Program-made: the position numbers and the translations under genes
Assembly (NCBI GenBank): GCA_964426185.1
Contig: CAYRPF010000041.1
Span: forward strand, 1 to 26,410
DNA length: 26,410 nucleotides
Source: an uncultured archaeon
Lineage (GTDB): Archaea > Asgardarchaeota > Lokiarchaeia > Sigyniarchaeales > Promethearchaeaceae
Reading direction: 5' to 3'
The notes under the pieces: model-generated
Told to the model about the DNA's origin: nothing
Database searches by the model: none
The model's input: only the letters and a program-made list of their open reading frames with translations
Shown here: positions 1 to 12,103 of the stretch, one piece after another
How positions within the stretch are numbered: the stretch's first letter is position 1
Layout of the letters: every line of letters begins with the position of its first letter

Positions 1-1425
1 TTCATTTCACATGGACATGCAGATCATTGTTCTTTTATGGGATCATTACCAGAAGTTTATGTTTCAAGCAGAGAAAATCTCCAAAAACCATACCATGAAA
101 CCAATCAATCTGAGAAAATACGATATTATCCGTTTCCAATTTTAACCACCTCCCGAAACTTTCAGATTTTGGAAACTCGATTCAATTGCCAATTTATTTC
201 ACTATTTGATTGGTATGATGCACTTTTTTCCGATCAAGAAAAGAGAAAAAATGGAAATAATATATTTGCACATAATTCATGGTCCCAATCAGAAATCCAT
301 ATAGCGTTGAGATATTTAAATAAATCAAGAAAATATTATTGTAAATTTTTCATGGGTGAAATTAAATCAAATAAAATATATATATCAAATAATTCAAATA
401 ACATTTCAATATTTTTTCCAGATGAGCAAAATTTTGAATCATGGTTAATTGGACAGCGCTATTTTTATCCGATTTTCATTGATGATTATGTTATATGGCT
501 TATCCCCTCTGGACATGTTATTGGGGCATGCTCACTCTGCATTTCCAAAAAATCAACAATTTTGGTGGAAGCTGAAAGATGTTCTGAAAATTTCGTTATT
601 ATGGATAATTTAGATAAAAATAATCAACTAAGTAAGTGTGATTTTGTTTATTATGGTGAATACTATCCTATTTTTCGTGGCCATTGTTTAATTCCACCAC
701 CAATTCAATCAAAACATATAGTTTTAGATATGTTGTATGGAGACCCAAGAAAAATATTCCCAAGTTTTACAGAAGAATTAACAAGGTTAAAAACTTGGAT
801 AATTAACAATATCAAAGAACGAAATCTCGTATTTTTTTGCCACCAGTTGGGAAAACCCCAGTTGATTTTGGAAATTCTTTGCGATGTCTTGGCTAATAAA
901 ATTTTAAATCTTCAAAAAGCAATAACCCAAGAGCAAGAAGAAGTCCAGGAAAAAAGTTTAGAAATACCCACTATCCCGTTAATTCTTCCAAATGAATATT
1001 TCAAACTCTTTGAAAGCATACTTCCAAGTTCCATTATGAAATACCTAAAAAAAAATAAAATTTTATTAAACAAGAGTTCCGCAGCCCAGTTAAAGATTAA
1101 AGATCAATCAAAGTTTATTTTATTGGAAAAACCTCGACAGAGAAATTCAAGTACATTTATCAATTTTTACCATAAATATCATCCTTTAATTGCTGAAATA
1201 TCAGGATGGTGTGGAGATCTGAAATTTCGTGAAGAACATCTTGCAGATGAGTATTTTGAAATTACAGACCATTTTCCTATTAGAGAAGCCACTTTTTGGC
1301 TAAAAAAAAGCCAATTTACGAATATTTGGATAACAAATAATTCTTCAAATTTACCAATTAAATATCTAATGGAAAATCTCGATAATTGCCATAAAAGTCA
1401 CCTTATTGAAGATTTTACGATCTAA
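1..1425 (+). CDS. MBL-fold metallo-hydrolase / beta-CASP-type nuclease, 5'-partial (starts before the window)
   Basis: Frame is open from base 1: nt 1-36 read FISHGHADHCSF (HxHxDH motif), upstream of the ATG at 37 used by the ORF track. Downstream motifs PSGHVIGA, LGKPQ, ISGW and ITDHF match the SNM1/Artemis-like, ligase-associated exonuclease group. Confidence 0.8.
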   Translation, partial: FISHGHADHCSFMGSLPEVYVSSRENLQKPYHETNQSEKIRYYPFPILTTSRNFQILETRFNCQFISLFDWYDALFSDQEKRKNGNNIFAHNSWSQSEIHIALRYLNKSRKYYCKFFMGEIKSNKIYISNNSNNISIFFPDEQNFESWLIGQRYFYPIFIDDYVIWLIPSGHVIGACSLCISKKSTILVEAERCSENFVIMDNLDKNNQLSKCDFVYYGEYYPIFRGHCLIPPPIQSKHIVLDMLYGDPRKIFPSFTEELTRLKTWIINNIKERNLVFFCHQLGKPQLILEILCDVLANKILNLQKAITQEQEEVQEKSLEIPTIPLILPNEYFKLFESILPSSIMKYLKKNKILLNKSSAAQLKIKDQSKFILLEKPRQRNSSTFINFYHKYHPLIAEISGWCGDLKFREEHLADEYFEITDHFPIREATFWLKKSQFTNIWITNNSSNLPIKYLMENLDNCHKSHLIEDFTI

Positions 1426-1538
1426 TTTTTTTATTGATATTGAAAACTCTCGGATATTTTGCACAGCGATAAAGATCCACAATTCAAAAAATCAAGATCT
1501 AATGATCACTCTAAATTTATGCTTTTTGGCAGTTTTTA

Positions 1539-2414
1539 TTATTGTTTCCTTTCTCTATACCGTTTAAAATGACCAAAACCCGCTGTTCTTCCGTTTCCTG
1601 TATTCATATCCTCTCCAAAACGGGTTAGAATATCCAACCATTTTCCCATCGGATTCTCTACATCTTCGTTAAGGTATTTAATCCAACCCATGGCGCCGGC
1701 GAATTTAACATTCTTTCCCATGCTCCAGGCATGAGTTTTCATTTGATAGGATGACACGGAAACATTCTTTGAAACCCATTCAAAGAATTCAGTAGGAACG
1801 GCCATTTCAGTGCCGGCAAAGACACTATCCCATAATTTAGCCAGATTTGGAAAGAAATATTCAGGTAACGGGAACCGCATTGTGGAATTCCTCCCCCTTA
1901 TGCTGAAGGCGGTGGGTGAGAGAAATTTAACGGATAAACTCGGTATAATCGTAGCTGATTGAACCAGATCCTTAAGACTTTTCTGCTTAATCTCGACTTG
2001 AGTAATAACTGCTTTTTGCATGGCATATTGAATGGTTGATTCTTTCTGCTGCAGGATAAAGTCTAAAAGGGTGCGCGAAATGTTATCGTTCAGTGAAGAA
2101 ATTATATATGTGATTTTTTCCACCTTAGAATTCCTTGAACCAGTAGAATTGGTAGAGCTGCGGAAACGGTTATTTCCGGACCTACGATTCAACTGCTGGG
2201 GATAATGAAGCTTTTGTTGAAGTGCATAGTCCAGAACAAACAAAGGAGAATCTTTCGGTTGTTTTTGATGAAGTAAATTGCCAATGGTGGCATTATATTG
2301 TTTCAACCAATCCATGAAGATGCCTCGGAAAATATATGCGTAAGGTTTTAAGAAAAACGGACCGGTTGACTCGTGTGGGTAGAGGGTAAAAATAAACTGA
2401 GTTAGCTGTGTCAT
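1539..2414 (-). CDS. cas6: CRISPR-associated endoribonuclease Cas6 (type I-A/I-B/III-like, not Cas6e/Cas6f)
   Basis: C-terminal Gly-rich loop TGNGRTAGFGHF, the motifs FLSPTAF, RFPLPEYFF..LAKLW and FAGAMGWIKY, and an N-terminal AYIFRGIF helix. 291 aa. Confidence 0.9.
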   Translation of the reverse strand: MTQLTQFIFTLYPHESTGPFFLKPYAYIFRGIFMDWLKQYNATIGNLLHQKQPKDSPLFVLDYALQQKLHYPQQLNRRSGNNRFRSSTNSTGSRNSKVEKITYIISSLNDNISRTLLDFILQQKESTIQYAMQKAVITQVEIKQKSLKDLVQSATIIPSLSVKFLSPTAFSIRGRNSTMRFPLPEYFFPNLAKLWDSVFAGTEMAVPTEFFEWVSKNVSVSSYQMKTHAWSMGKNVKFAGAMGWIKYLNEDVENPMGKWLDILTRFGEDMNTGNGRTAGFGHFKRYRERKQ

Positions 2415-2505
2415 TTAAGTGTCATTATTTGTAATTCGAAGGTGTTTAATAATTTATAGATCTATACATATAAATCGCATATTCGCAAATAATTCACAAC
2501 AATCA

Positions 2506-2738
2506 TGCAATTTTTTAACAATAGCCATATTATGATGCAATTATTAATCGAAATTTCTTTTACGAAAAGAGAGAGAATTGAACTTCTGAAAAAGGAAAAA
2601 TTTAGGGTTGCTGAAATTAAAATCAAGCCAATTGAGACGATTAGTGATTAAATTAATGGATTTTGGGGCTTTGAACTCTCTAATTTGATGATTTATTATT
2701 TAATATATTCCATAGCTTTTCTTCGAAGCCTTGTTCAA
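2506..2738. repeat. 233-bp direct repeat, copy 1
   Basis: Identical to 3372-3604 except for one base (C2729 vs T3595); offset 866 bp. Confidence 0.97.
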
Positions 2739-2747
2739 GTTCACAAA

Positions 2748-2834
2748 ATTATTTTCGCACATGTGGGGGTGTACCAGAACGCTGACCATTCAGCCAGTGT
2801 CTCAATGTATTCTCCCCACGCATAGGGGTGTACC
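2748..2834 (+). CRISPR. Degenerate CRISPR mini-array: 2 repeats and one 33-bp spacer (2776-2808)
   Basis: R1 2748-2775 ATTATTTTCGCACATGTGGGGGTGTACC; R2 2809-2834 ATTCTCCCCACGCATAGGGGTGTACC. The inferred consensus ATTCTCCCCACGCATGTGGGGGTGTACC forms a CCCCAC/GTGGGG hairpin. The 61-nt start-to-start period is typical of type I-E-like repeats. Lies about 330 bp from the cas6 start. Confidence 0.75.
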
Positions 2835-3086
2835 AAGTTACCTTTGCTTATGCTAGAAGTATGGATCTGGAAGAATCGATTTTAAATTTAGATATGCAAG
2901 GTAGTTTTTCATAAAAAATACACGTATTGACTTAATAAATATAAAAATTGAGAAAAAGGAAAGAAATCACGTAAAATTTAATAGATAGTTTGAATTAAGT
3001 AAGATAAGGAAATTTTTCTAATTTTAAATAATCATCAAACAGTCGTTTTTCGGCGTTTGACACTAATTATTTATGAGTTGAATTAT

Positions 3087-3233
3087 ATGACACAAGAACA
3101 ATGGATTATAGAAGAACATCAACGTCGTGATCAAGAACTCCTTGATCAACAATATGAAAATGCAATTATGCGAAAAGTCGTAAATCAATCATTATTAATT
3201 TCTAAAAAAAACGCTAGAGCATATAGTGGGTAA
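3087..3233 (+). CDS. Putative 48-aa small protein (MTQEQWIIEEHQRRDQELLDQQYENAIMRKVVNQSLLISKKNARAYSG)
   Basis: ATG..TAA ORF below the track cut-off. TATA-like TTTTAAATA at 3022-3030, inverted repeat at 3035-3060, T-rich tract directly after the stop. Confidence 0.5.
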   Translation: MTQEQWIIEEHQRRDQELLDQQYENAIMRKVVNQSLLISKKNARAYSG

Positions 3234-3325
3234 TTCTTTTTTTCTCAAAATTAACTAAATTTTAACATGGTAGATTAAATGTGCTATAGAGAAAGATTTC
3301 GATCATTTATCTTCCTGTTAAAATC

Positions 3326-3344
3326 CAAGTTCACAAAATTATTT
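3326..3344. repeat. 19-bp direct repeat CAAGTTCACAAAATTATTT (other copy 2736-2754)
   Basis: Exact match. The first copy runs into CRISPR repeat 1. Confidence 0.9.
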
Positions 3345-3371
3345 CCCTCAAAAAGAAGAGGTATATTTTTT

Positions 3372-3604
3372 TGCAATTTTTTAACAATAGCCATATTATG
3401 ATGCAATTATTAATCGAAATTTCTTTTACGAAAAGAGAGAGAATTGAACTTCTGAAAAAGGAAAAATTTAGGGTTGCTGAAATTAAAATCAAGCCAATTG
3501 AGACGATTAGTGATTAAATTAATGGATTTTGGGGCTTTGAACTCTCTAATTTGATGATTTATTATTTAATATATTCCATAGCTTTTCTTCGAAGTCTTGT
3601 TCAA
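3372..3604. repeat. 233-bp direct repeat, copy 2 (includes the last ~19 codons of the SMC-NYN gene)
   Basis: Matches 2506-2738 at 232/233 positions. Confidence 0.97.
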
Positions 3605-6551
3605 AATAAACTTGATCTTGTAAAATATTATATCTGATGGAGTGATTTTCAATGAATTCTTTCAAATTAGGGTATTTTTTCCGGTATTCATTATAATAAT
3701 CATTTGTTATTATATAACCGTTATTTCTTTTAGCAAAACTTATGATAAACCAATCATCATCTTGACCTTTTGGTGCTTGATTCACATTTGATTGCTTTAG
3801 TAATGTATTAAATGTTCCGACTTCGATTTCTGCTATATTATGCCGAATTCCTGCACCAAAAAGGATTAATATCTTTTCTTCTGGAATACCGAGTTCAATT
3901 AATCTATTTTTACATTTTATTACATCTGAAATTCTCGCAAATTTTGAATTAGTGTTATTTCTAGCAATATTTGATCCATCAAGTATGAAAGAATAATCTA
4001 ATTTTGGAGCAATTTTTGAAACGCTTAAATCTTTTCTTTCCCTTGATATTAGGTTTGTGGCATTTAATGCCAAGGTTAATGTTTTTTCATATGGGAAATG
4101 AATTTCCTGATAATATCCTAATTCTTTTACTTGTTTGTAAAAATCTGAAACGTCTAGAAATTTTTTTTGCAGGAATGCTAGTCTTTCTGAATTTCCAATT
4201 TTCTCTTCTGATCTAATGGAATTATTGAAAGCAGAGTGAATAGCAGCGATATCTTCTTTTATCGGAAGGATATTAATAAATTTTGCAATATCACCATCTT
4301 CAATCTTCTCTCGCTGAAATTTGTACAAATCCATACTGTGTTCATGATCCAATAACGCATATGATTCATCTAAAATAACAACGTTATATTTTGCAACATT
4401 AGAAGCGATTGAAATAATAGCTCGGCAATATGCGTATGTTTTTTCACCACTCGAGAAATCATTTAAATCTCTTTTTTCTTCAAATTCTTCTTTGGTTTCA
4501 AAGATGATGGTTTTTTCTGTTATATCAAATCGTTTGATTTTTCTATATTCCTTAAATACGTAATCAAAAAACTCCTTTTTACTATAGATATTCCGAAATA
4601 TTTGATCAAATTGTGAAGTAATTAATTCTTTATTCTTCAAATTCTTTGGTTTCGTTCCTTTTATTATTCGAGAAATATCTTCTTGAAGATCTTTCAATTT
4701 TTTGTATAACTTTTGAGTGTTTTTCTTATAATTTGAAAATTTATCTTTGATTTTAGAAACAAATGTAAGAAAATCTCCACAATTTTTAAATTTAAATTGT
4801 CGTGCTGATTTCTCTACTTCTTTATTTAAAATCTCAATTTCTTTTTTGATGCTTTCAATTTTTTCCTTAACATTTTCCAACTTCTTTTTATGTAGTATTA
4901 ATTTTTCATATTCTTTATTGTGTTCCTTTTCGATTTTATTTAAGATAATTTCGCATTCATCAACAGTTGAAATCTCTGATTTAATTTCCATTTTTCGAAG
5001 ATCACTTTTTATAGCAATTTCTGTAGGACTTTCATCAATTTTTTGCTTGATTTCTTCTAGATTTTGAAGTTTACTAATAATATCTAATTGCTCTTCTTTC
5101 TGATTTTTGATAAGTTCTTCAATTTGTTTCTCTTTAGTTTGAAATTTTTTATAACTTTCTTCTAAATCCAAAAATTCGTCAATACTTCTGTGAAAACCTT
5201 TTTGTTTCTTTTCAATTGAGCTAATTTTTTCTGATATTTCAGCATAATTGGATAATTTTTCTAATATATCTTTTTTATATCGAATAGAATTATTCAATTT
5301 CTTTACTTTGTCTTGATAATCCTTCAATGCAGGTTTTTCTTTGAAAATCAAACTTGATGAATTTAAAGTGTTATAAAGATCACTAAAAGAGAGTTTAATC
5401 TCAGTTTTTGGATAAGATGTATGAATAAATGATAAAATTTTTTCATCTTTCCACTTATTAGAACAAGCTTGACTACAAATATCCCTTAGTCTTGTGATGT
5501 ATGAATTAATTTTTAAAATTCGATTATTCTCGTTATTTAATTGTTCAATTTTTCTTTTTATTTCCATTATTTCTTCTTGCAGATCTTTTATATTGTTAGA
5601 AATTTCATTTTGCGTTTGTGTAATTGAATCTAAAGAAATATTATATTGCGTTTTAAGAATTTCAATTATATTTTCTTGTTTACTTTGCAACTTTTGAAGT
5701 TTGGTTAATATAATTTTTTCATCTTTGTTTAGATTCTTATCAAAATCTTTTATTTTAGTTTGGATCTCTTGTAGATTAAGGTAATTCTTATTTATTTGTT
5801 CTTGAATTGTTTTTGATTGCTCTTTTTTTAAAATTAACTGATTTTCTATATCTTCAGGATTATTTTGCAAAATAAATTTAAGTTTTTTAAGCATTTCCAA
5901 TTGATTTTCATGAAATTTTATCTTGCTTGTTCGTCTTTTTATACTATTTAATAAATCATCATGATTATCCAGAAGTTCATTATAAGTTTGTTGTAATTTT
6001 AAATAATTTTCCAAATCTGCTTGTCTTGAGGTATTTTTAAACCAATTTTCAAAATTTTCTAGAAATTCCATCTTTTTTTCTAGTTTCTGGAGTTTCTCTT
6101 CAATTTTACTTTTAAAAATATCTTGAAAAAAAGTAATTTGTTGATGTAAACTTTCATTTCCCCTTATTGTTCTTACATAGATTACCTTTCGGAATTTTTG
6201 ATAAGATATCTCTGAACCGTTTTCATAAAATTTACCTAAAGTCATAGGATTTACTCGATTAAAATTTTTATCGTATTTCCACAAATAGGGTTGCAAATGG
6301 ACCTTATAAGTTTCAGACTTTTCGGTGAGAAATTGAATAGTGCAATCCTTGATGATTTGAGAGTATTTTGAAAATTCACCTTCATTTTTAAAAGTATATT
6401 CTCCTGCTGCAATTTCCATCAATGTGGATGCCATTGATTTCCCTACACCATTTTTTCCATGAATTGTGATTATATTTTCAGGTAAAATCTTGGGGATTGT
6501 TGATCTTCCCGTTGTTTTAATTTCAATCCCGATCATTTCGGTCATCTTCAT
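3546..6551 (-). CDS. Rad50/SMC-like coiled-coil ABC ATPase fused to a C-terminal Zc3h12a/Regnase-type NYN (PIN-fold) ribonuclease
   Basis: Walker A GKNGVGKS (aa 32-39), ~480-aa coiled-coil region with central CSQAC (359-363), signature FSSGEK (699-704), Walker B/D-loop VVILDESYALLD (724-735). NYN motifs FILDGSNIA (855-863) and DDDWFIISFA...GYIITNDYYNEY (931-956). Confidence 0.88.
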   Translation of the reverse strand: MKMTEMIGIEIKTTGRSTIPKILPENIITIHGKNGVGKSMASTLMEIAAGEYTFKNEGEFSKYSQIIKDCTIQFLTEKSETYKVHLQPYLWKYDKNFNRVNPMTLGKFYENGSEISYQKFRKVIYVRTIRGNESLHQQITFFQDIFKSKIEEKLQKLEKKMEFLENFENWFKNTSRQADLENYLKLQQTYNELLDNHDDLLNSIKRRTSKIKFHENQLEMLKKLKFILQNNPEDIENQLILKKEQSKTIQEQINKNYLNLQEIQTKIKDFDKNLNKDEKIILTKLQKLQSKQENIIEILKTQYNISLDSITQTQNEISNNIKDLQEEIMEIKRKIEQLNNENNRILKINSYITRLRDICSQACSNKWKDEKILSFIHTSYPKTEIKLSFSDLYNTLNSSSLIFKEKPALKDYQDKVKKLNNSIRYKKDILEKLSNYAEISEKISSIEKKQKGFHRSIDEFLDLEESYKKFQTKEKQIEELIKNQKEEQLDIISKLQNLEEIKQKIDESPTEIAIKSDLRKMEIKSEISTVDECEIILNKIEKEHNKEYEKLILHKKKLENVKEKIESIKKEIEILNKEVEKSARQFKFKNCGDFLTFVSKIKDKFSNYKKNTQKLYKKLKDLQEDISRIIKGTKPKNLKNKELITSQFDQIFRNIYSKKEFFDYVFKEYRKIKRFDITEKTIIFETKEEFEEKRDLNDFSSGEKTYAYCRAIISIASNVAKYNVVILDESYALLDHEHSMDLYKFQREKIEDGDIAKFINILPIKEDIAAIHSAFNNSIRSEEKIGNSERLAFLQKKFLDVSDFYKQVKELGYYQEIHFPYEKTLTLALNATNLISRERKDLSVSKIAPKLDYSFILDGSNIARNNTNSKFARISDVIKCKNRLIELGIPEEKILILFGAGIRHNIAEIEVGTFNTLLKQSNVNQAPKGQDDDWFIISFAKRNNGYIITNDYYNEYRKKYPNLKEFIENHSIRYNILQDQVYFEQDFEEKLWNILNNKSSN

Positions 6552-6849
6552 TCCTCCAACTTATTCAAATACTCAAGAAAATCATCATAGGAAACTCTCG
6601 AAAAGTTATTAAATTCGATTATAGAATCAATGAATTCTTGGAAAATGCTATTTAATTCAAAGATTTGCATTGCTTTTTGAATGAATTCATCTGTAATTTC
6701 TTCATAATCCAAAATAAACACCTCTGTTTGTCTTGTTTCTTGTATTTATTTTGATATTCATACAAAAGAATATTGATTTTATTCCTATTAATACATATAC
6801 TTTCGATGATCCATTGAAATTTAGATTGATTTGTCTGAGATATATTCAT
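6548..6849 (-). pseudogene. ~100-aa middle protein of the operon, split by a single -1 frameshift (real or sequencing error)
   Basis: The 65-aa ORF 6652..6849 continues in the adjacent frame (IQETRQTEVFILDYEEITDEFIQKAMQIFELNSIFQEFIDSIIEFNNFSRVSYDDFLEYLNKLEE*). It ends at a TGA (6550-6548) that overlaps the SMC ATG (ATGA). Restoring one A near 6745-6747 gives a 303-nt ORF. Confidence 0.75.
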
Positions 6850-7450
6850 CAGCTTTCAATGGTATTAGTTTATCTGCTTCAATAATACCAAGCTTTCTTG
6901 CTTCAAGATTTATCTTCCACAGTTCAGAATGGACTAAGGTGTTTTCTCTCGCATCTGTTTCATTGAACATTCCTGGTAAACGTAGATTTCCTATGTTGAT
7001 GCTATCTATTACTCCATAAACAAAATTCGACGAGATTATTGCTCGTTTCTTTCCAAATTTGACAACTTTAAATTTAATTTGTGGTTTGAATTGATGACAT
7101 TTATATTTAAAATGAAAGACATGATTTCCTTCAATATACATTGGCATCCCACAATACATGCACCTTTTTAAGTAACCCTGAGTGCGAAGATATCGATTTT
7201 CTTCTAATAAATAATATTTAAATTTCGTATAACCATATCGTAAGGGATATCCAGTACTACATTGGAATTTTACAATATCTTGATTTTCTTTTTCTATTTG
7301 AATCAAATAACTACTTATTCTTTTAATTGAAAATTCCTCTAGAAAAATATTTCCTCTTTCTAAAAAGAAATCAGATTGAATATAATCAAATATTTCATAA
7401 GATGAACAAGGTGAGAATTCTTGCAAAATTGAGAGTATTAACTCTTTCAT
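6821..7450 (-). CDS. Hypothetical protein with predicted N-terminal winged-helix and a Cys/His Zn-finger
   Basis: MKELILSILQEFSPCSSYEIFDYI...SIKRISSYLIQIEKE pattern (wHTH-like) and CMYCG...HFKYKC. First gene of the operon; overlaps the next gene by 29 bp. Confidence 0.65.
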   Translation of the reverse strand: MKELILSILQEFSPCSSYEIFDYIQSDFFLERGNIFLEEFSIKRISSYLIQIEKENQDIVKFQCSTGYPLRYGYTKFKYYLLEENRYLRTQGYLKRCMYCGMPMYIEGNHVFHFKYKCHQFKPQIKFKVVKFGKKRAIISSNFVYGVIDSINIGNLRLPGMFNETDARENTLVHSELWKINLEARKLGIIEADKLIPLKADEYISDKSI

Positions 7451-7997: not shown

Positions 7998-10643
7998 ATG
8001 ACTAGTTCGGGAAATTTGGATCTCAACTTTTCATCGGGTATCCCTGCGTTAGATGACGTCCTTCATGGCATTTTACCAGGAGACAATGTGGTGCTTAAAG
8101 TCGACGTGATTGAAGAATTTATCCCATTTGCGCATCGCTTTGCTCATTATTGCCACGAAAATAGAAAAGATTTGATCTATTTTCGTTATGCTCAACATGA
8201 TCATTTGATACCAAAGGATGTCAAAGCCCATATCTATGAACTTTCTCCAGAAAAAGGTTTTGAAAATTTTATTTCTCAAATAATTAGCGTGATTGAAGAA
8301 TTTGGGCGTGGGGCATGTTATATCTTTGATTCCCTCAGTGATTTATCTGTCGGGTGGTATTCAGATGTCATGTTAAGCAATTTTTTTATGCTAACTTGCC
8401 CTTATCTTTTTAAATTTGACACGGTTGCCTATTTTGCAGTATTTCGGAACCGTCATCACCAAAACACTATTACTCATATTCAAAATACCGCCCAAGTCGT
8501 CCTTGACATATATGAAAATAGCAGCAACCTCTATATTCGTCCTGTCAAAGTCTATAATCGATATAGCCAAACACTTTATATGCTCCACAAATGGTACAAC
8601 ACCCCAGAATTAGGTGAAGTTGTCAAACCAGTAAGGCAGAGCGCAATTATTGCAAAAACGTTAGAAAAACGATTACACCCATGGCTCGATGCAACCAATC
8701 GACGACCTGATTTCTGGCATATTACCTTCAATCGAGCTCAAGAAACCTTAGAAGGAATTTTATTGGGAGAAATTTCTCCAGTTCAAGCCCAAACCTTTAA
8801 AAATCGTTTATTGCAGATGGCAATAGTGCGTGATGACCTCCTCTTTATTTTAGCGGTTCAATATTTAGAATTAGAAGATCTGTTAGAGATCGGGAAACGG
8901 TTAATCGGAACGGGGTTTATTGGAGGCAAATCTGTTGGGATGATTTTAGCTCAAGCAATTCTTCGTAAAACGGATCCTAAATGGAATGACATCTTGGAAC
9001 CCCAAGACTCTTTTTTTATCGGATCAGAAGTCTTTTACACTTACCTGGTGGTAAACGATTGTTGGTGGATGCGCCGGAAACTCTCCCACCATGCAACATT
9101 TCTTGAAGGAGTTGAAGCGACCCAACAGAAAATTCTCTCGGGTGAATTCCCCGATTATATCATTCAACAATTTCAAAGTATGCTAGAGTATTTCGGTCAA
9201 TCACCTATTATTGTCCGTTCCAGTAGTTTACAAGAAGACGCCTACGGAAATTCTTTTTCAGGGAAATATGAAAGCATTTTCTTAGCGAATCAAGGACCTC
9301 CAGAAGAACGTCTAAAAAATTTTCTCCAAGCAATCAAAACGGTATATGCAAGTACTATTAGTCGGGATGCTTTGACCTATCGAAAGAGCAGAGGGTTATT
9401 AGAATCTGACGAACAAATGGCAATTCTTGTCCAACGAGTTTCTGGAGCAATTTATGGCGATTATTTTATGCCACAAGCCGCAGGGGTCGGATTTTCATTT
9501 AACCCTTATGTTTGGGATCATCGGATTGACCCAAAAGCGGGTGTCTTACGCCTTGTCCTTGGATTAGGAACACGTGCCGTAGATAGGACAGATGATGACT
9601 ACACACGCGTGGTTGCTTTAAGCAATCCAAAACTCCGGGTAGAAGATAAATTTGACGATATTCGGAATAATTCACAACAACGTTTAGATGTTTTAGACCT
9701 TCGTGTAAATCGGTTCATTACATATCCATTTCGTAAACTACTGGAAAAATTAGAAGATTTTCCCATTGAATTTTTTGCCATTCATGACGTAGAATTGATA
9801 GAACGGATGGAGAAACTTGGAAGAGAAGTGAAATTTGCGTGGGTACTTACATTTGATAATCTACTCACAAAAACTCGATTCACTGAAGATATGCGAGATA
9901 TGTTGCGAACTTTGCAAAATGCATATCAATGTCCCGTGGATATCGAATTTACAGTGAATTTTTACAATGAAAAGGATTATAATATAAACCTTCTTCAATG
10001 TCGACCGTTCCAAATAAAGCGTGAAATCAAAAAAATTGAATCTCCTGGTCAAATTGACGAAAAAGATTTAATGTTAGCTACGGAAGGACCAATTATTGGG
10101 ACTAGTCTTGCAGTCACTATCGATCGAATTATATATGTCGTCCCTTCAGTTTATGGAAAACTCCCGATTCGAGAACGTCACGCAGTTGCACGATTGATTG
10201 GAAAGATAAATCAAACCCCGGTAGGTGGTTCAGGGCGAGTCCTTCTTTTAGGGCCTGGAAGGTGGGGTACGTCTTCACCAAGTTTAGGGATCCCCGTGAA
10301 TTTTGCCGAAATTAATAATGTTTCGATCATTGGTGAAATGGCTGAAATGCATGAAGGATTAATCCCGGATCTCTCGTTAGGTACCCATTTCTTCAACAAC
10401 TTAGTCGAATTAGATATGTTATATTTCGCCATTCACCCAGAAAAGGCGAATAATTTTATCAATCGAGCGCTGTTTGAACAAAGTAAAAATCGATTGACAG
10501 AACTCCTCAGTGGTGTTGAAAATTGGAAAGACGCAATCAAAGTCATTGATGTCGCCGACGCTTTTCCAAATAAGGCCCTTGCTGTAAATTTCAACACAGT
10601 GAATCAAAAAGGTTATTGTTACTTGATGGATAGAGCAAAGTAA
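7998..10643 (+). CDS. PEP/pyruvate-binding (PPDK_N, ATP-grasp) domain protein with N-terminal degenerate KaiC/RecA-like domain
   Basis: N-terminal FSSGIPALDDVLHGILPGDNVV and IFDSLSDL. PPDK_N motifs IGGKSVGM, PIIVRSSSLQEDAYGNSFSGKYES, MAILVQRV, PVDIEF and LLQCRP. C-terminal GPGRWG and GTHFF. Confidence 0.85.
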   Translation: MTSSGNLDLNFSSGIPALDDVLHGILPGDNVVLKVDVIEEFIPFAHRFAHYCHENRKDLIYFRYAQHDHLIPKDVKAHIYELSPEKGFENFISQIISVIEEFGRGACYIFDSLSDLSVGWYSDVMLSNFFMLTCPYLFKFDTVAYFAVFRNRHHQNTITHIQNTAQVVLDIYENSSNLYIRPVKVYNRYSQTLYMLHKWYNTPELGEVVKPVRQSAIIAKTLEKRLHPWLDATNRRPDFWHITFNRAQETLEGILLGEISPVQAQTFKNRLLQMAIVRDDLLFILAVQYLELEDLLEIGKRLIGTGFIGGKSVGMILAQAILRKTDPKWNDILEPQDSFFIGSEVFYTYLVVNDCWWMRRKLSHHATFLEGVEATQQKILSGEFPDYIIQQFQSMLEYFGQSPIIVRSSSLQEDAYGNSFSGKYESIFLANQGPPEERLKNFLQAIKTVYASTISRDALTYRKSRGLLESDEQMAILVQRVSGAIYGDYFMPQAAGVGFSFNPYVWDHRIDPKAGVLRLVLGLGTRAVDRTDDDYTRVVALSNPKLRVEDKFDDIRNNSQQRLDVLDLRVNRFITYPFRKLLEKLEDFPIEFFAIHDVELIERMEKLGREVKFAWVLTFDNLLTKTRFTEDMRDMLRTLQNAYQCPVDIEFTVNFYNEKDYNINLLQCRPFQIKREIKKIESPGQIDEKDLMLATEGPIIGTSLAVTIDRIIYVVPSVYGKLPIRERHAVARLIGKINQTPVGGSGRVLLLGPGRWGTSSPSLGIPVNFAEINNVSIIGEMAEMHEGLIPDLSLGTHFFNNLVELDMLYFAIHPEKANNFINRALFEQSKNRLTELLSGVENWKDAIKVIDVADAFPNKALAVNFNTVNQKGYCYLMDRAK

Positions 10644-10687: not shown

Positions 10688-12103
10688 TTAAAAATAGTAT
10701 ACAGGAATCCATAGCATGGTAAAATCATCGTGTTTTTCAATTTTAAAGACATTTAAGGTAGCAACAAAAGCCAATTTAATTCCGTACTCCCTAATGAATG
10801 AATAGAATCCGCGTGAAACCTTTTTTCCACCGAGTTTTACTTCAATTGGAATAAGAAGAGAATTACTTTTACTCACTAAAACAAAATCTACTTCAGTTTT
10901 GTTAGTGGTGCGCCAATATTTTACTTCGTAACCTTCCAAATATGGCATAAGTTTTTTCAATAATTCTCCAAATACAAAATTTTCTAGTAAACACCCCTTT
11001 TCGGGGCCGCTCCGATTATCAAACGGTGTGAAATTAGATATCAGAGCATTTCTAATCCCATGATCAAGAAAGTAGATTTTTTCTTGCTTTCTTAATTCAT
11101 TTCTCAAATTTTTGTGATATGGACTAAGTAAATGGATGATATAACTGTGTTGCAAAATTTCAAGATATGAATCAACAGTATTTCGTGATAGATGGAGCTC
11201 TGAAGATATTTCTGAATTTACTACAAAACCACCAGGTTGAGTTGCTAAAAGCGTGCTTAATTTGAAGAACTTAGTGCTATCACGTATTTTGAAGAATGAA
11301 ATGATGTCTTTTTCTAAGTATAAAGTAATTATGTTTTGAAGAATCGTTTTTTTCAATTCACCATCTGATGTTTTAATTACTTCAGGATATCCCCCCCAAA
11401 TCATGTATTCTTTTAAAAGTGCAATTACTTCATCGACAAAGGCGGGTTTGGGCATTTTGTCAATTATTTCATGGAGTAAATCATAGTTTTTTTCTTTATC
11501 TTTATCTTTAAGCAATTCGAGAGTTTTAACAATTTTTTCAAGCCCCTTTTTTCGATTGTCAATTATTTTACGAAGCCCAGTATCCCGTGCTTCAACAAAT
11601 TCACAAAAAGAGAAGCTATAAAGGTTAAAAAGGAAAAGGCGTCCTACCAACGAAGGTAGAATTCTTTTTCTAATTTCCAAAGAAGATGATCCCGAAAAAA
11701 TAATTTTAATGTGCGGGAATTCATCATATAGAAATTTTAGAATCATTCCAGCATTTTCGACATTTTGTATTTCATCCAAAAACAAATACAGTCTATTCTC
11801 ATTTCCACCATATCTTTCAATAATTGCCAATGGATTTTGTTGTAATTCTTCTCTCAAATTCATAAAATCGAGGTTTAGAAATACTATTTTTATTTTAGAA
11901 GAAGTATTTTCTAATTTTTTTGGGTTTTCAAAATCATTACAATTTCCTACTTTTTTTAGATTTTCCAATTTTTCTTGCAAAATCTTCAACAATGTAGTCT
12001 TACCAACTTGCCTTGCGCCTCTAAGCCCCAAAATTTCCTTTCGATCGATGAATTTCATCAATTTATTCAGCAAATCCCTACTATACGGCATATTTTCATA
12101 CAT
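10688..12103 (-). CDS. AAA_14 ATPase with DUF4143 / C-terminal PD-(D/E)XK-like domain (COG1373 family)
   Basis: GARQVGKTT, LFLDEIQ, SGSSS, GGYPE, KIYFLDHG, LLENFV, YWRT..EVDFV..IPIEVK. Confidence 0.9.
   Translation of the reverse strand: MYENMPYSRDLLNKLMKFIDRKEILGLRGARQVGKTTLLKILQEKLENLKKVGNCNDFENPKKLENTSSKIKIVFLNLDFMNLREELQQNPLAIIERYGGNENRLYLFLDEIQNVENAGMILKFLYDEFPHIKIIFSGSSSLEIRKRILPSLVGRLFLFNLYSFSFCEFVEARDTGLRKIIDNRKKGLEKIVKTLELLKDKDKEKNYDLLHEIIDKMPKPAFVDEVIALLKEYMIWGGYPEVIKTSDGELKKTILQNIITLYLEKDIISFFKIRDSTKFFKLSTLLATQPGGFVVNSEISSELHLSRNTVDSYLEILQHSYIIHLLSPYHKNLRNELRKQEKIYFLDHGIRNALISNFTPFDNRSGPEKGCLLENFVFGELLKKLMPYLEGYEVKYWRTTNKTEVDFVLVSKSNSLLIPIEVKLGGKKVSRGFYSFIREYGIKLAFVATLNVFKIEKHDDFTMLWIPVYYF

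Follow-up and report, generated by a model that had tools for sequence, protein, structure and literature searches.

The first 26,410 nt of a 27,841-nt contig (C41) from the genome of an uncultured Lokiarchaeia archaeon, here called the window, carry a cas6 gene and, upstream of it and in divergent orientation, a CRISPR mini-array that consists of two damaged repeats, R1 and R2, around one spacer. The locus raises the question whether this unit encodes a regulatory RNA that resembles a CRISPR RNA (crRNA) and acts in trans, which was one half of the original prediction, or is the remnant of a deleted CRISPR locus, which was the other half. The host genome (3.26 Mb in 155 contigs; 34% G+C; 92% complete) has a type I-E system of its own on another contig (C82). 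The unit in the window is probably a displaced, decaying paralogue of the array end next to cas3 on C82, because its last repeat and the adjoining 123 nt of flank match that array end at 91% identity, although the spacers are unrelated.

The mini-array lies on the plus strand, 333 nt upstream of the start of cas6, which is on the minus strand (Table 1). It had been described from the letters alone as two degenerate repeats and one spacer about 330 bp upstream of cas6, with an R1 that keeps the 3' half supplying the crRNA 5' handle and has a decayed 5' arm, and an R2 that keeps a hairpin and has lost 2 nt, and all of this held up. In R1, the first 12 nt have diverged, and the last 17 nt match the consensus exactly; the matching part comprises the 3' stem arm and the 8-nt would-be 5' handle GUGUACCA. 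R2 has one substitution besides the deletion, is left with a 4-bp stem, and agrees with the repeat of the genome's main arrays, on C82 and on a third contig (C108), at 26 of 29 consensus positions. The spacer is 32 nt long in a 29-nt repeat register, which equals the 33 bp given earlier in a 28-nt register.

All 12 occurrences of the 10-mer GGGGTGTACC in the 3.26-Mb genome are within CRISPR repeats; thus, the CRISPR identity of the window repeats is far beyond chance. A genome-wide search with the repeat, which had been proposed as the way to a parent array and its Cascade, found both. The array on C108 has seven repeat copies and a trailer at its end, and the array on C82 has two repeat copies that adjoin cas2 and run off the contig start. 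The canonical repeat of these parent arrays is 29 nt long with a 7-bp stem, a tetraloop, an 8-nt tail and a 61-nt period (stem CCCCAC/GUGGGG, loop GCAU, tail GUGUACCA). The type I-E set on C82 is complete and comprises Cas3 (1124 aa), Cse1, Cse2, Cas7e, Cas5e, Cas6e (PF08798, 179 bits), Cas1 and Cas2e. The window repeats match the arrays adjoining this operon and are type I-E repeats. The genome has a single Cas1 locus, and a k-mer scan of the genome revealed no array of any other repeat kind. Among related Lokiarchaeia, the repeat family is scattered together with Cas7e.

The "mismatched repeat type" of the original prediction, i.e. a I-E-like repeat beside a Cas6 of another kind, is explained by these data, because the cognate Cas6e and Cascade are encoded on C82 and the cas6 of the window is the odd one out. 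The assignment to type I-E was correct; the 61-nt period ascribed to the unit was not, because R1 and R2 are spaced by 59 nt owing to the 2-nt deletion in R2, and the 61-nt period is found only in the parent arrays. The unit also lacks the 7-bp stem of a Cas6e-type hairpin. The predicted hairpin energies are -11.9 kcal/mol for the canonical repeat, -5.3 kcal/mol for R1, which has a G.U-rich stem, and -6.2 kcal/mol for R2 with its 4-bp stem.

Two further features of the I-E locus on C82 were observed. In Cas2e (323-1501, minus strand), residues 6-89 are fused to a C-terminal extension of ~300 aa that has no Pfam or NCBIfam match, and between cas1 and cas6e, the latter at 2977-3843, the gap (2543-2976) is unusually long at 434 nt.

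Table 1. Features around the mini-array in the window, and differences from the mini-array on C82 by segment
Feature	Position in window	Strand	Remark
cas6, 291 aa, not Cas6e	1539-2414	minus	PF10040 3e-11 (44 bits); PADLOC Cas6d 1e-19, Cas6_IIIa 6e-15
233-nt direct repeat, copy B1	2506-2738		232/233 identical to 3372-3604
19-nt exact direct repeat, copy A1	2736-2754		identical to 3326-3344; covers first 6-7 nt of R1
R1, degenerate or truncated I-E repeat	2748-2776	plus	5' 12 nt diverged; 2760-2776 (17 nt) as consensus
Spacer	2777-2808	plus	32 nt; about 48% G+C against 34% in the genome; one copy in genome
R2, I-E repeat	2809-2835	plus	one substitution and a 2-nt deletion in hairpin 3' arm; 4-bp stem left
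R2, window against C82			3/29 columns differ
Shared flank, 18-nt linker and first 105 nt of conserved element	2836-2958	plus	alignment to C82
18-nt linker, window against C82			3/18 differ
Next 56 nt of flank, window against C82			7 differ
Last 49 nt of flank, window against C82			0 differ
Conserved element with 48-codon open reading frame (3087-3233, plus)	2853-3270	plus	77-84% nucleotide identity in relatives
19-nt exact direct repeat, copy A2	3326-3344		only two copies in genome
233-nt direct repeat, copy B2	3372-3604		overlaps stop-codon end of 1001-aa SMC-like/NYN gene (3546-6551, minus)

A paralogous mini-array beside cas3

A second one-spacer array, divergently oriented to cas3 and 46 nt upstream of its start codon, occupies C82 11796-11885. 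This mini-array is near-intact, with one mismatch in its first repeat and a perfect second repeat. Positions 2809-2958 of the window align with C82 11857-12008 at 91% identity over 152 columns, which take in R2 together with 123 nt of flank. Both mini-arrays have the same repeat/flank junction, but their spacers are unrelated. By segment, R2 is no better kept than the non-repeat sequence around it, and its change is damaging to the hairpin, as follows from the difference counts (Table 1) and the fold energies. A palindromic TTTATAAA was seen ~30 nt upstream of the first repeat of the C82 mini-array.

The flank leads into a conserved element that crosses genera and has an open reading frame of 48-50 codons: one copy each was found in G002, a genome of the same genus, and in G011 and G012, and three copies in G010, whereas none was found in G001 (same genus, single contig, 93% complete). 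In G002, G010, G011 and G012, the conserved stretch reaches ~180 nt further upstream, to a total of ~0.6 kb, and has no CRISPR repeat. In the window, the CRISPR unit takes the place of these 5' ~180 nt. On C82, no more than the first 105 nt of the element remain, directly after R2 of the mini-array there, while the window keeps the rest. Because the element has no adjoining CRISPR repeat in the other four genomes, the repeat/flank junction is derived and arose once, and both copies in the host genome descend from it. Rfam searches at the gathering threshold and at E<=1 gave no match in window positions 2400-3700 or in the G002 copy of the element, and the window has no tRNA.

Direct repeats mark the site. 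The mini-array lies inside the bracket formed by the two copies of the 233-nt repeat, the only two in the genome. Copy B2 holds the last 59 nt of the gene for the 1001-aa protein, and copy B1 duplicates the 3' end and the downstream region of that gene; the DNA upstream of R1 is a local duplication. A simple tandem duplication of 866 bp was considered as the source of the 233-nt repeat and rejected, because the sequences that follow the two copies are unrelated. The overlap of the 19-nt copy A1 with R1 would mark a rearrangement junction. R1 is either a point-decayed repeat or a 3' repeat fragment fused to the sequence at this site. In favour of point decay, six changes are present in R1, of which five are transitions from Watson-Crick to G.U pairing; its overlap with the 19-mer fits an origin at a junction.

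From these data we infer the following history of the unit. An ancestral short array adjoining the small conserved element would have been copied, and repeat-to-repeat deletions would then have left a different spacer in each copy. Local rearrangement, visible as the 233-nt and 19-nt duplications, may have split the window copy from the cas genes and cut into its first repeat. Since then, this copy would have drifted at an about neutral rate, the 2-nt deletion shortening the hairpin to which Cas6e binds. If so, array ends can be duplicated and then stranded by local rearrangements.

Alternatively, the ~0.6-kb element, which is possibly a small mobile or integrating module, would have taken the terminal repeat-spacer-repeat of the cas3-proximal array to the new site as cargo; there, the element might use the RNA to guide an attack on competitors or to decoy Cascade. 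The patchy occurrence of the element, with none found in G001 and three copies in G010, fits such a module, as do its 77-84% identity across genera, the 105-nt stub directly after R2 on C82 and the direct repeats that bracket it here (19 and 233 nt) and in G012 (300 and 135 nt, unrelated in sequence to those of the window). However, no integrase or transposase was found near the element in the window, neither G002 nor G011 showed repeats on either side of it, and its copies in other genomes lack a CRISPR repeat. We therefore give the cargo explanation little probability; if true, it would describe an Asgard mobile module with a mini-CRISPR that uses or decoys the Cascade of its host.

Targets and function of the unit

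RNAs of the CreR/CreA kind are defined by a partial, seed-containing match of the pseudo-spacer, flanked by a protospacer-adjacent motif (PAM), to the promoter of a cas or toxin gene of the same locus (bioRxiv 10.1101/2023.03.10.532045; PMC10120712; PMC12055562). On this explanation, the window unit would be transcribed, trimmed by Cas6e and used to guide the Cascade encoded on C82 to repress a cas, toxin or host promoter. The unit looks the part in having two degenerate repeats, one spacer and an exact 5' handle in its first repeat, and a cognate Cascade is encoded in the same genome. Moreover, about 8% of the I-E loci of archaea have mini-arrays, and type I-E is a type for which CreR has been shown (bioRxiv 10.1101/2023.03.10.532045; PMC10120712).

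However, the defining feature of a CreR/CreA RNA, here taken as a match of 10-15 nt that includes the seed, is missing, because no seed or partial match above chance was found. The window spacer has no mismatch-free match to its 11-nt seed (position 6 free) genome-wide; seed matches with one mismatch number 20, about the chance level, and none of them is on C82 or C41. The longest words common to the spacer and these two contigs are 9-10 nt, the same as for shuffled spacers, and a looser local scan of both gave few matches, all in coding sequence and with two seed mismatches. In the cas3, cse1 and cas6 regions and in the flank, no seed or partial spacer match with an adjacent motif was detected, and the genome contains no full-length self-target. 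The spacers of the main arrays gave no self-hits in the genome from which to infer a PAM. For the spacer of the C82 mini-array, no self-target was found in the genome; a 13-nt seed match on contig C6 was dismissed, as it is inside an open reading frame (ORF) of 615 aa.

Small ORFs in the flank were considered as CreT-like toxin genes and rejected: a 17-codon plus-strand ORF has five non-synonymous changes to one synonymous change, a 19-codon minus-strand ORF has three of each, and the promoter regions of both are untargeted. The promoter regions of the 19-codon ORF and of the 48-codon ORF (3087-3233) have no match to either mini-array spacer.

Position and conservation also speak against a CreR/CreA-like RNA. 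The unit is on a contig other than that of the I-E operon and was found neither in the relatives searched nor in public collections, and G014 has no mini-array in the 7 kb upstream of its cas3. The repeat/flank junction was not found in the metagenome and genome collections, from which the window's own records were possibly excluded. The different spacers of the two copies in the host genome argue against regulation, since both copies should have the same spacer if it were regulatory and conserved. Finally, R2 keeps the 3' tail, which is dispensable, and has lost part of the hairpin, which is required for the 3' handle. Altogether, a CreR/CreA-like function is improbable, and the regulatory half of the original prediction is not borne out; should the RNA prove to be made and to enter Cascade, the unit would be a rare case in archaea of a crRNA-like I-E regulator with a gene outside the cas locus.

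A one-spacer defence array that still works, with Cas6e and Cascade acting in trans and a crRNA directed against a virus or plasmid, is likewise unlikely, if somewhat easier to entertain. The spacer is of canonical length and its G+C content (about 48% against 34%) is foreign-like, the 8-nt handle is intact and the I-E machinery of the genome is complete. The search of the window spacer against the host genome and viral contigs, proposed along with the original prediction, returned no self-target beyond chance and no protospacer: none was found in viral contigs (searched with two sub-patterns) or metagenome contigs, nor, with up to three mismatches allowed, in 161 genomes of the class. A genuine array spacer and the C82 mini-spacer are likewise without a match in the viral collection, so that the missing targets are uninformative and these protospacer negatives carry little weight. 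Against a working array, both hairpins are weakened, R2 has drifted as fast as the non-repeat surroundings, and no leader resembling that of the main array was detected, positions 2415-2747 showing no similarity to the leader next to cas2 on C82.

We conclude that the window unit most likely has no function, or at best makes a poor substrate for Cas6e and Cascade in trans, because a leader, a nearby I-E cas gene and a regulatory target are all lacking. The remnant half of the original prediction thus stands in so far as the unit is a relic; the system from which it stems is not lost, because I-E Cascade, Cas6e and parent arrays are all present in the genome. A clear precedent for such stranded relic arrays is G017 (98% complete), in which a one-spacer unit with repeats of this family lies isolated (C288, locus positions ~1440-1530, minus strand) and in which neither Cas7e nor any other copy of the repeat was found.

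Several observations weigh against this conclusion. Cas6e, Cascade and Cas3, i.e. all that is needed to use an RNA from the mini-array, are encoded in the genome. The spacer is of full length and the 8-nt handle in R1 is exact; R1 can still fold through G.U pairs, R2 has four G-C pairs left, and a TATA-like TTTAATATA lies ~40 nt upstream of R1, as a candidate picked by eye only. Moreover, 49 nt of the flank (window 2910-2958, C82 11960-12008) are identical although the ~100 nt before them are ~12% diverged. This block holds a TATA-like AAATATAAAA, and the homology to C82 ends exactly at its end; the identity could hint at selection, on a promoter, or at recent gene conversion beside the mini-array. 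A regulatory target could be in the 8% of the genome that is not in the assembly, and, as a short seed suffices for regulation, a target may exist elsewhere in the genome. With these points taken into account, we still hold it to be probable, if well short of certain, that the unit is without function or nearly so.

The case serves as a worked negative: a CreA-like appearance, with one spacer, worn repeats and an adjoining cas gene, is insufficient as evidence, and it was the context of the whole genome that supplied the parent I-E system, the paralogous array end and the absence of a regulatory target in the searches. It also documents that a genome of the Lokiarchaeia has a type I-E system that is intact.

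The stand-alone cas6 of the window

As originally stated, cas6 is the sole cas gene of the window, in which ORFs of about 100 aa or more were surveyed and none other matched a cas family, and its product is not Cas6e. Typed with Pfam and PADLOC profiles (cut-off for PF10040, 25 bits), it is the only PF10040 Cas6 of the host genome; it has no match to the Cas6e family PF08798, no similarity to the genome's own Cas6e by BLASTP, and no meaningful sequence match among solved structures. The protein is a generic Cas6 that belongs to a type III-associated lineage, and it is not the enzyme expected to process the I-E repeat.

The same-genus genome G001 has an orthologue (67% identity) at a syntenic site. 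Its neighbourhood is partly syntenic and inverted, with the left-hand gene, a 168-aa gene and CorA common to both genomes. In G001, cas1 is 8.6 kb away from this cas6 and several RAMP genes are 30-60 kb away; no counterparts of these partners were found in the host genome, which has no RAMP genes that we could detect. Therefore, the cas6 of the window seems to have survived from a CRISPR region with type III genes, as known from the same genus, and would document a cas6 outliving its own CRISPR system. G001 also has a second, truncated cas6 (C1 180001-199000, locus positions 11245-11775), 1.6 kb after the full-length gene; it encodes 176 aa, is 67% identical to residues 102-217 of the window Cas6 and adjoins transposase fragments.

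Recruitment of the neighbouring Cas6 to process or bind the I-E-like RNA would make the two a functional pair. Adjacency and divergent orientation are all that the locus offers for this, and in Thermus a type III-associated Cas6 is reported to engage in cross-talk with a type I system (PMC12102369). However, the G001 orthologue holds its place without any mini-array, the same flank and a mini-array adjoin cas3 on C82, and a dedicated Cas6e exists. Recruitment is thus very improbable. The adjacency of cas6 and mini-array is coincidental; it is put down to the variable, defence-rich nature of the region and does not point to a functional pair.

Four genes to the right of the mini-array are defence-island candidates. 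They encode the 1001-aa protein (3546-6551, minus strand), which combines an SMC-like coiled coil with an NYN ribonuclease domain at its C terminus; a protein of 209 aa (6821-7450) and of no family; an 881-aa PPDK_N-domain protein (7998-10643); and an AAA_14/DUF4143 ATPase (10688-12103) that matches the PADLOC candidate system PDC-S01. The corresponding region of G001 has no counterpart of these four and has a different AAA_14/DUF4143 ATPase.

Comparison with known systems

Type I-E arrays of the Escherichia coli type are characterised by an 8-nt 5' handle and a 3' hairpin. The parent arrays are like canonical I-E arrays in their 29-nt repeat with 7-bp stem, tetraloop and 8-nt tail, their 32-nt spacers, their 61-nt period and the cse-type operon. 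By contrast, in the window unit both hairpins are damaged, there is a single spacer, and a leader and an adjoining I-E cas gene are lacking.

The CreR of Salmonella enterica type I-E is the closest regulatory counterpart in form: it is a degenerate I-E mini-CRISPR with the 8-nt handle in its first pseudo-repeat, as in the window (Liu et al., bioRxiv 10.1101/2023.03.10.532045). It lies in the cas locus, and over 15 consecutive nt its pseudo-spacer is identical to a site upstream of casA that is flanked by AAG; the window unit, by contrast, is outside the I-E locus and no such target was found for it. CreTA modules are described for type I-B of Haloarcula hispanica (Li et al. 2021, as cited in bioRxiv 10.1101/2023.03.10.532045 and PMC12055562) and for type I-E of Citrobacter rodentium (PMC12055562). 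The likeness to these is that a crRNA-like unit adjoins small ORFs, here one of 19 codons on the opposite strand and one of 48 codons downstream. Unlike in CreTA, no match to a small-ORF promoter was found, and the 48-codon ORF and the element also occur in genomes in which no I-E system was found.

Mini-arrays without conserved position or targets have been read as degraded repeats without function, and an origin by duplication of the terminal array unit has been proposed (Shmakov et al. 2023, PMC10120712). The window unit is like these in having two repeat-like sequences and one spacer, with a degenerate repeat. It differs from them in that its upstream repeat is the more damaged one, that it is on a contig other than that of the cas operon, and that it lies beside a cas6 of another type. 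It further differs in that its donor-like paralogue, the mini-array beside cas3, can be identified by the common repeat/flank junction.

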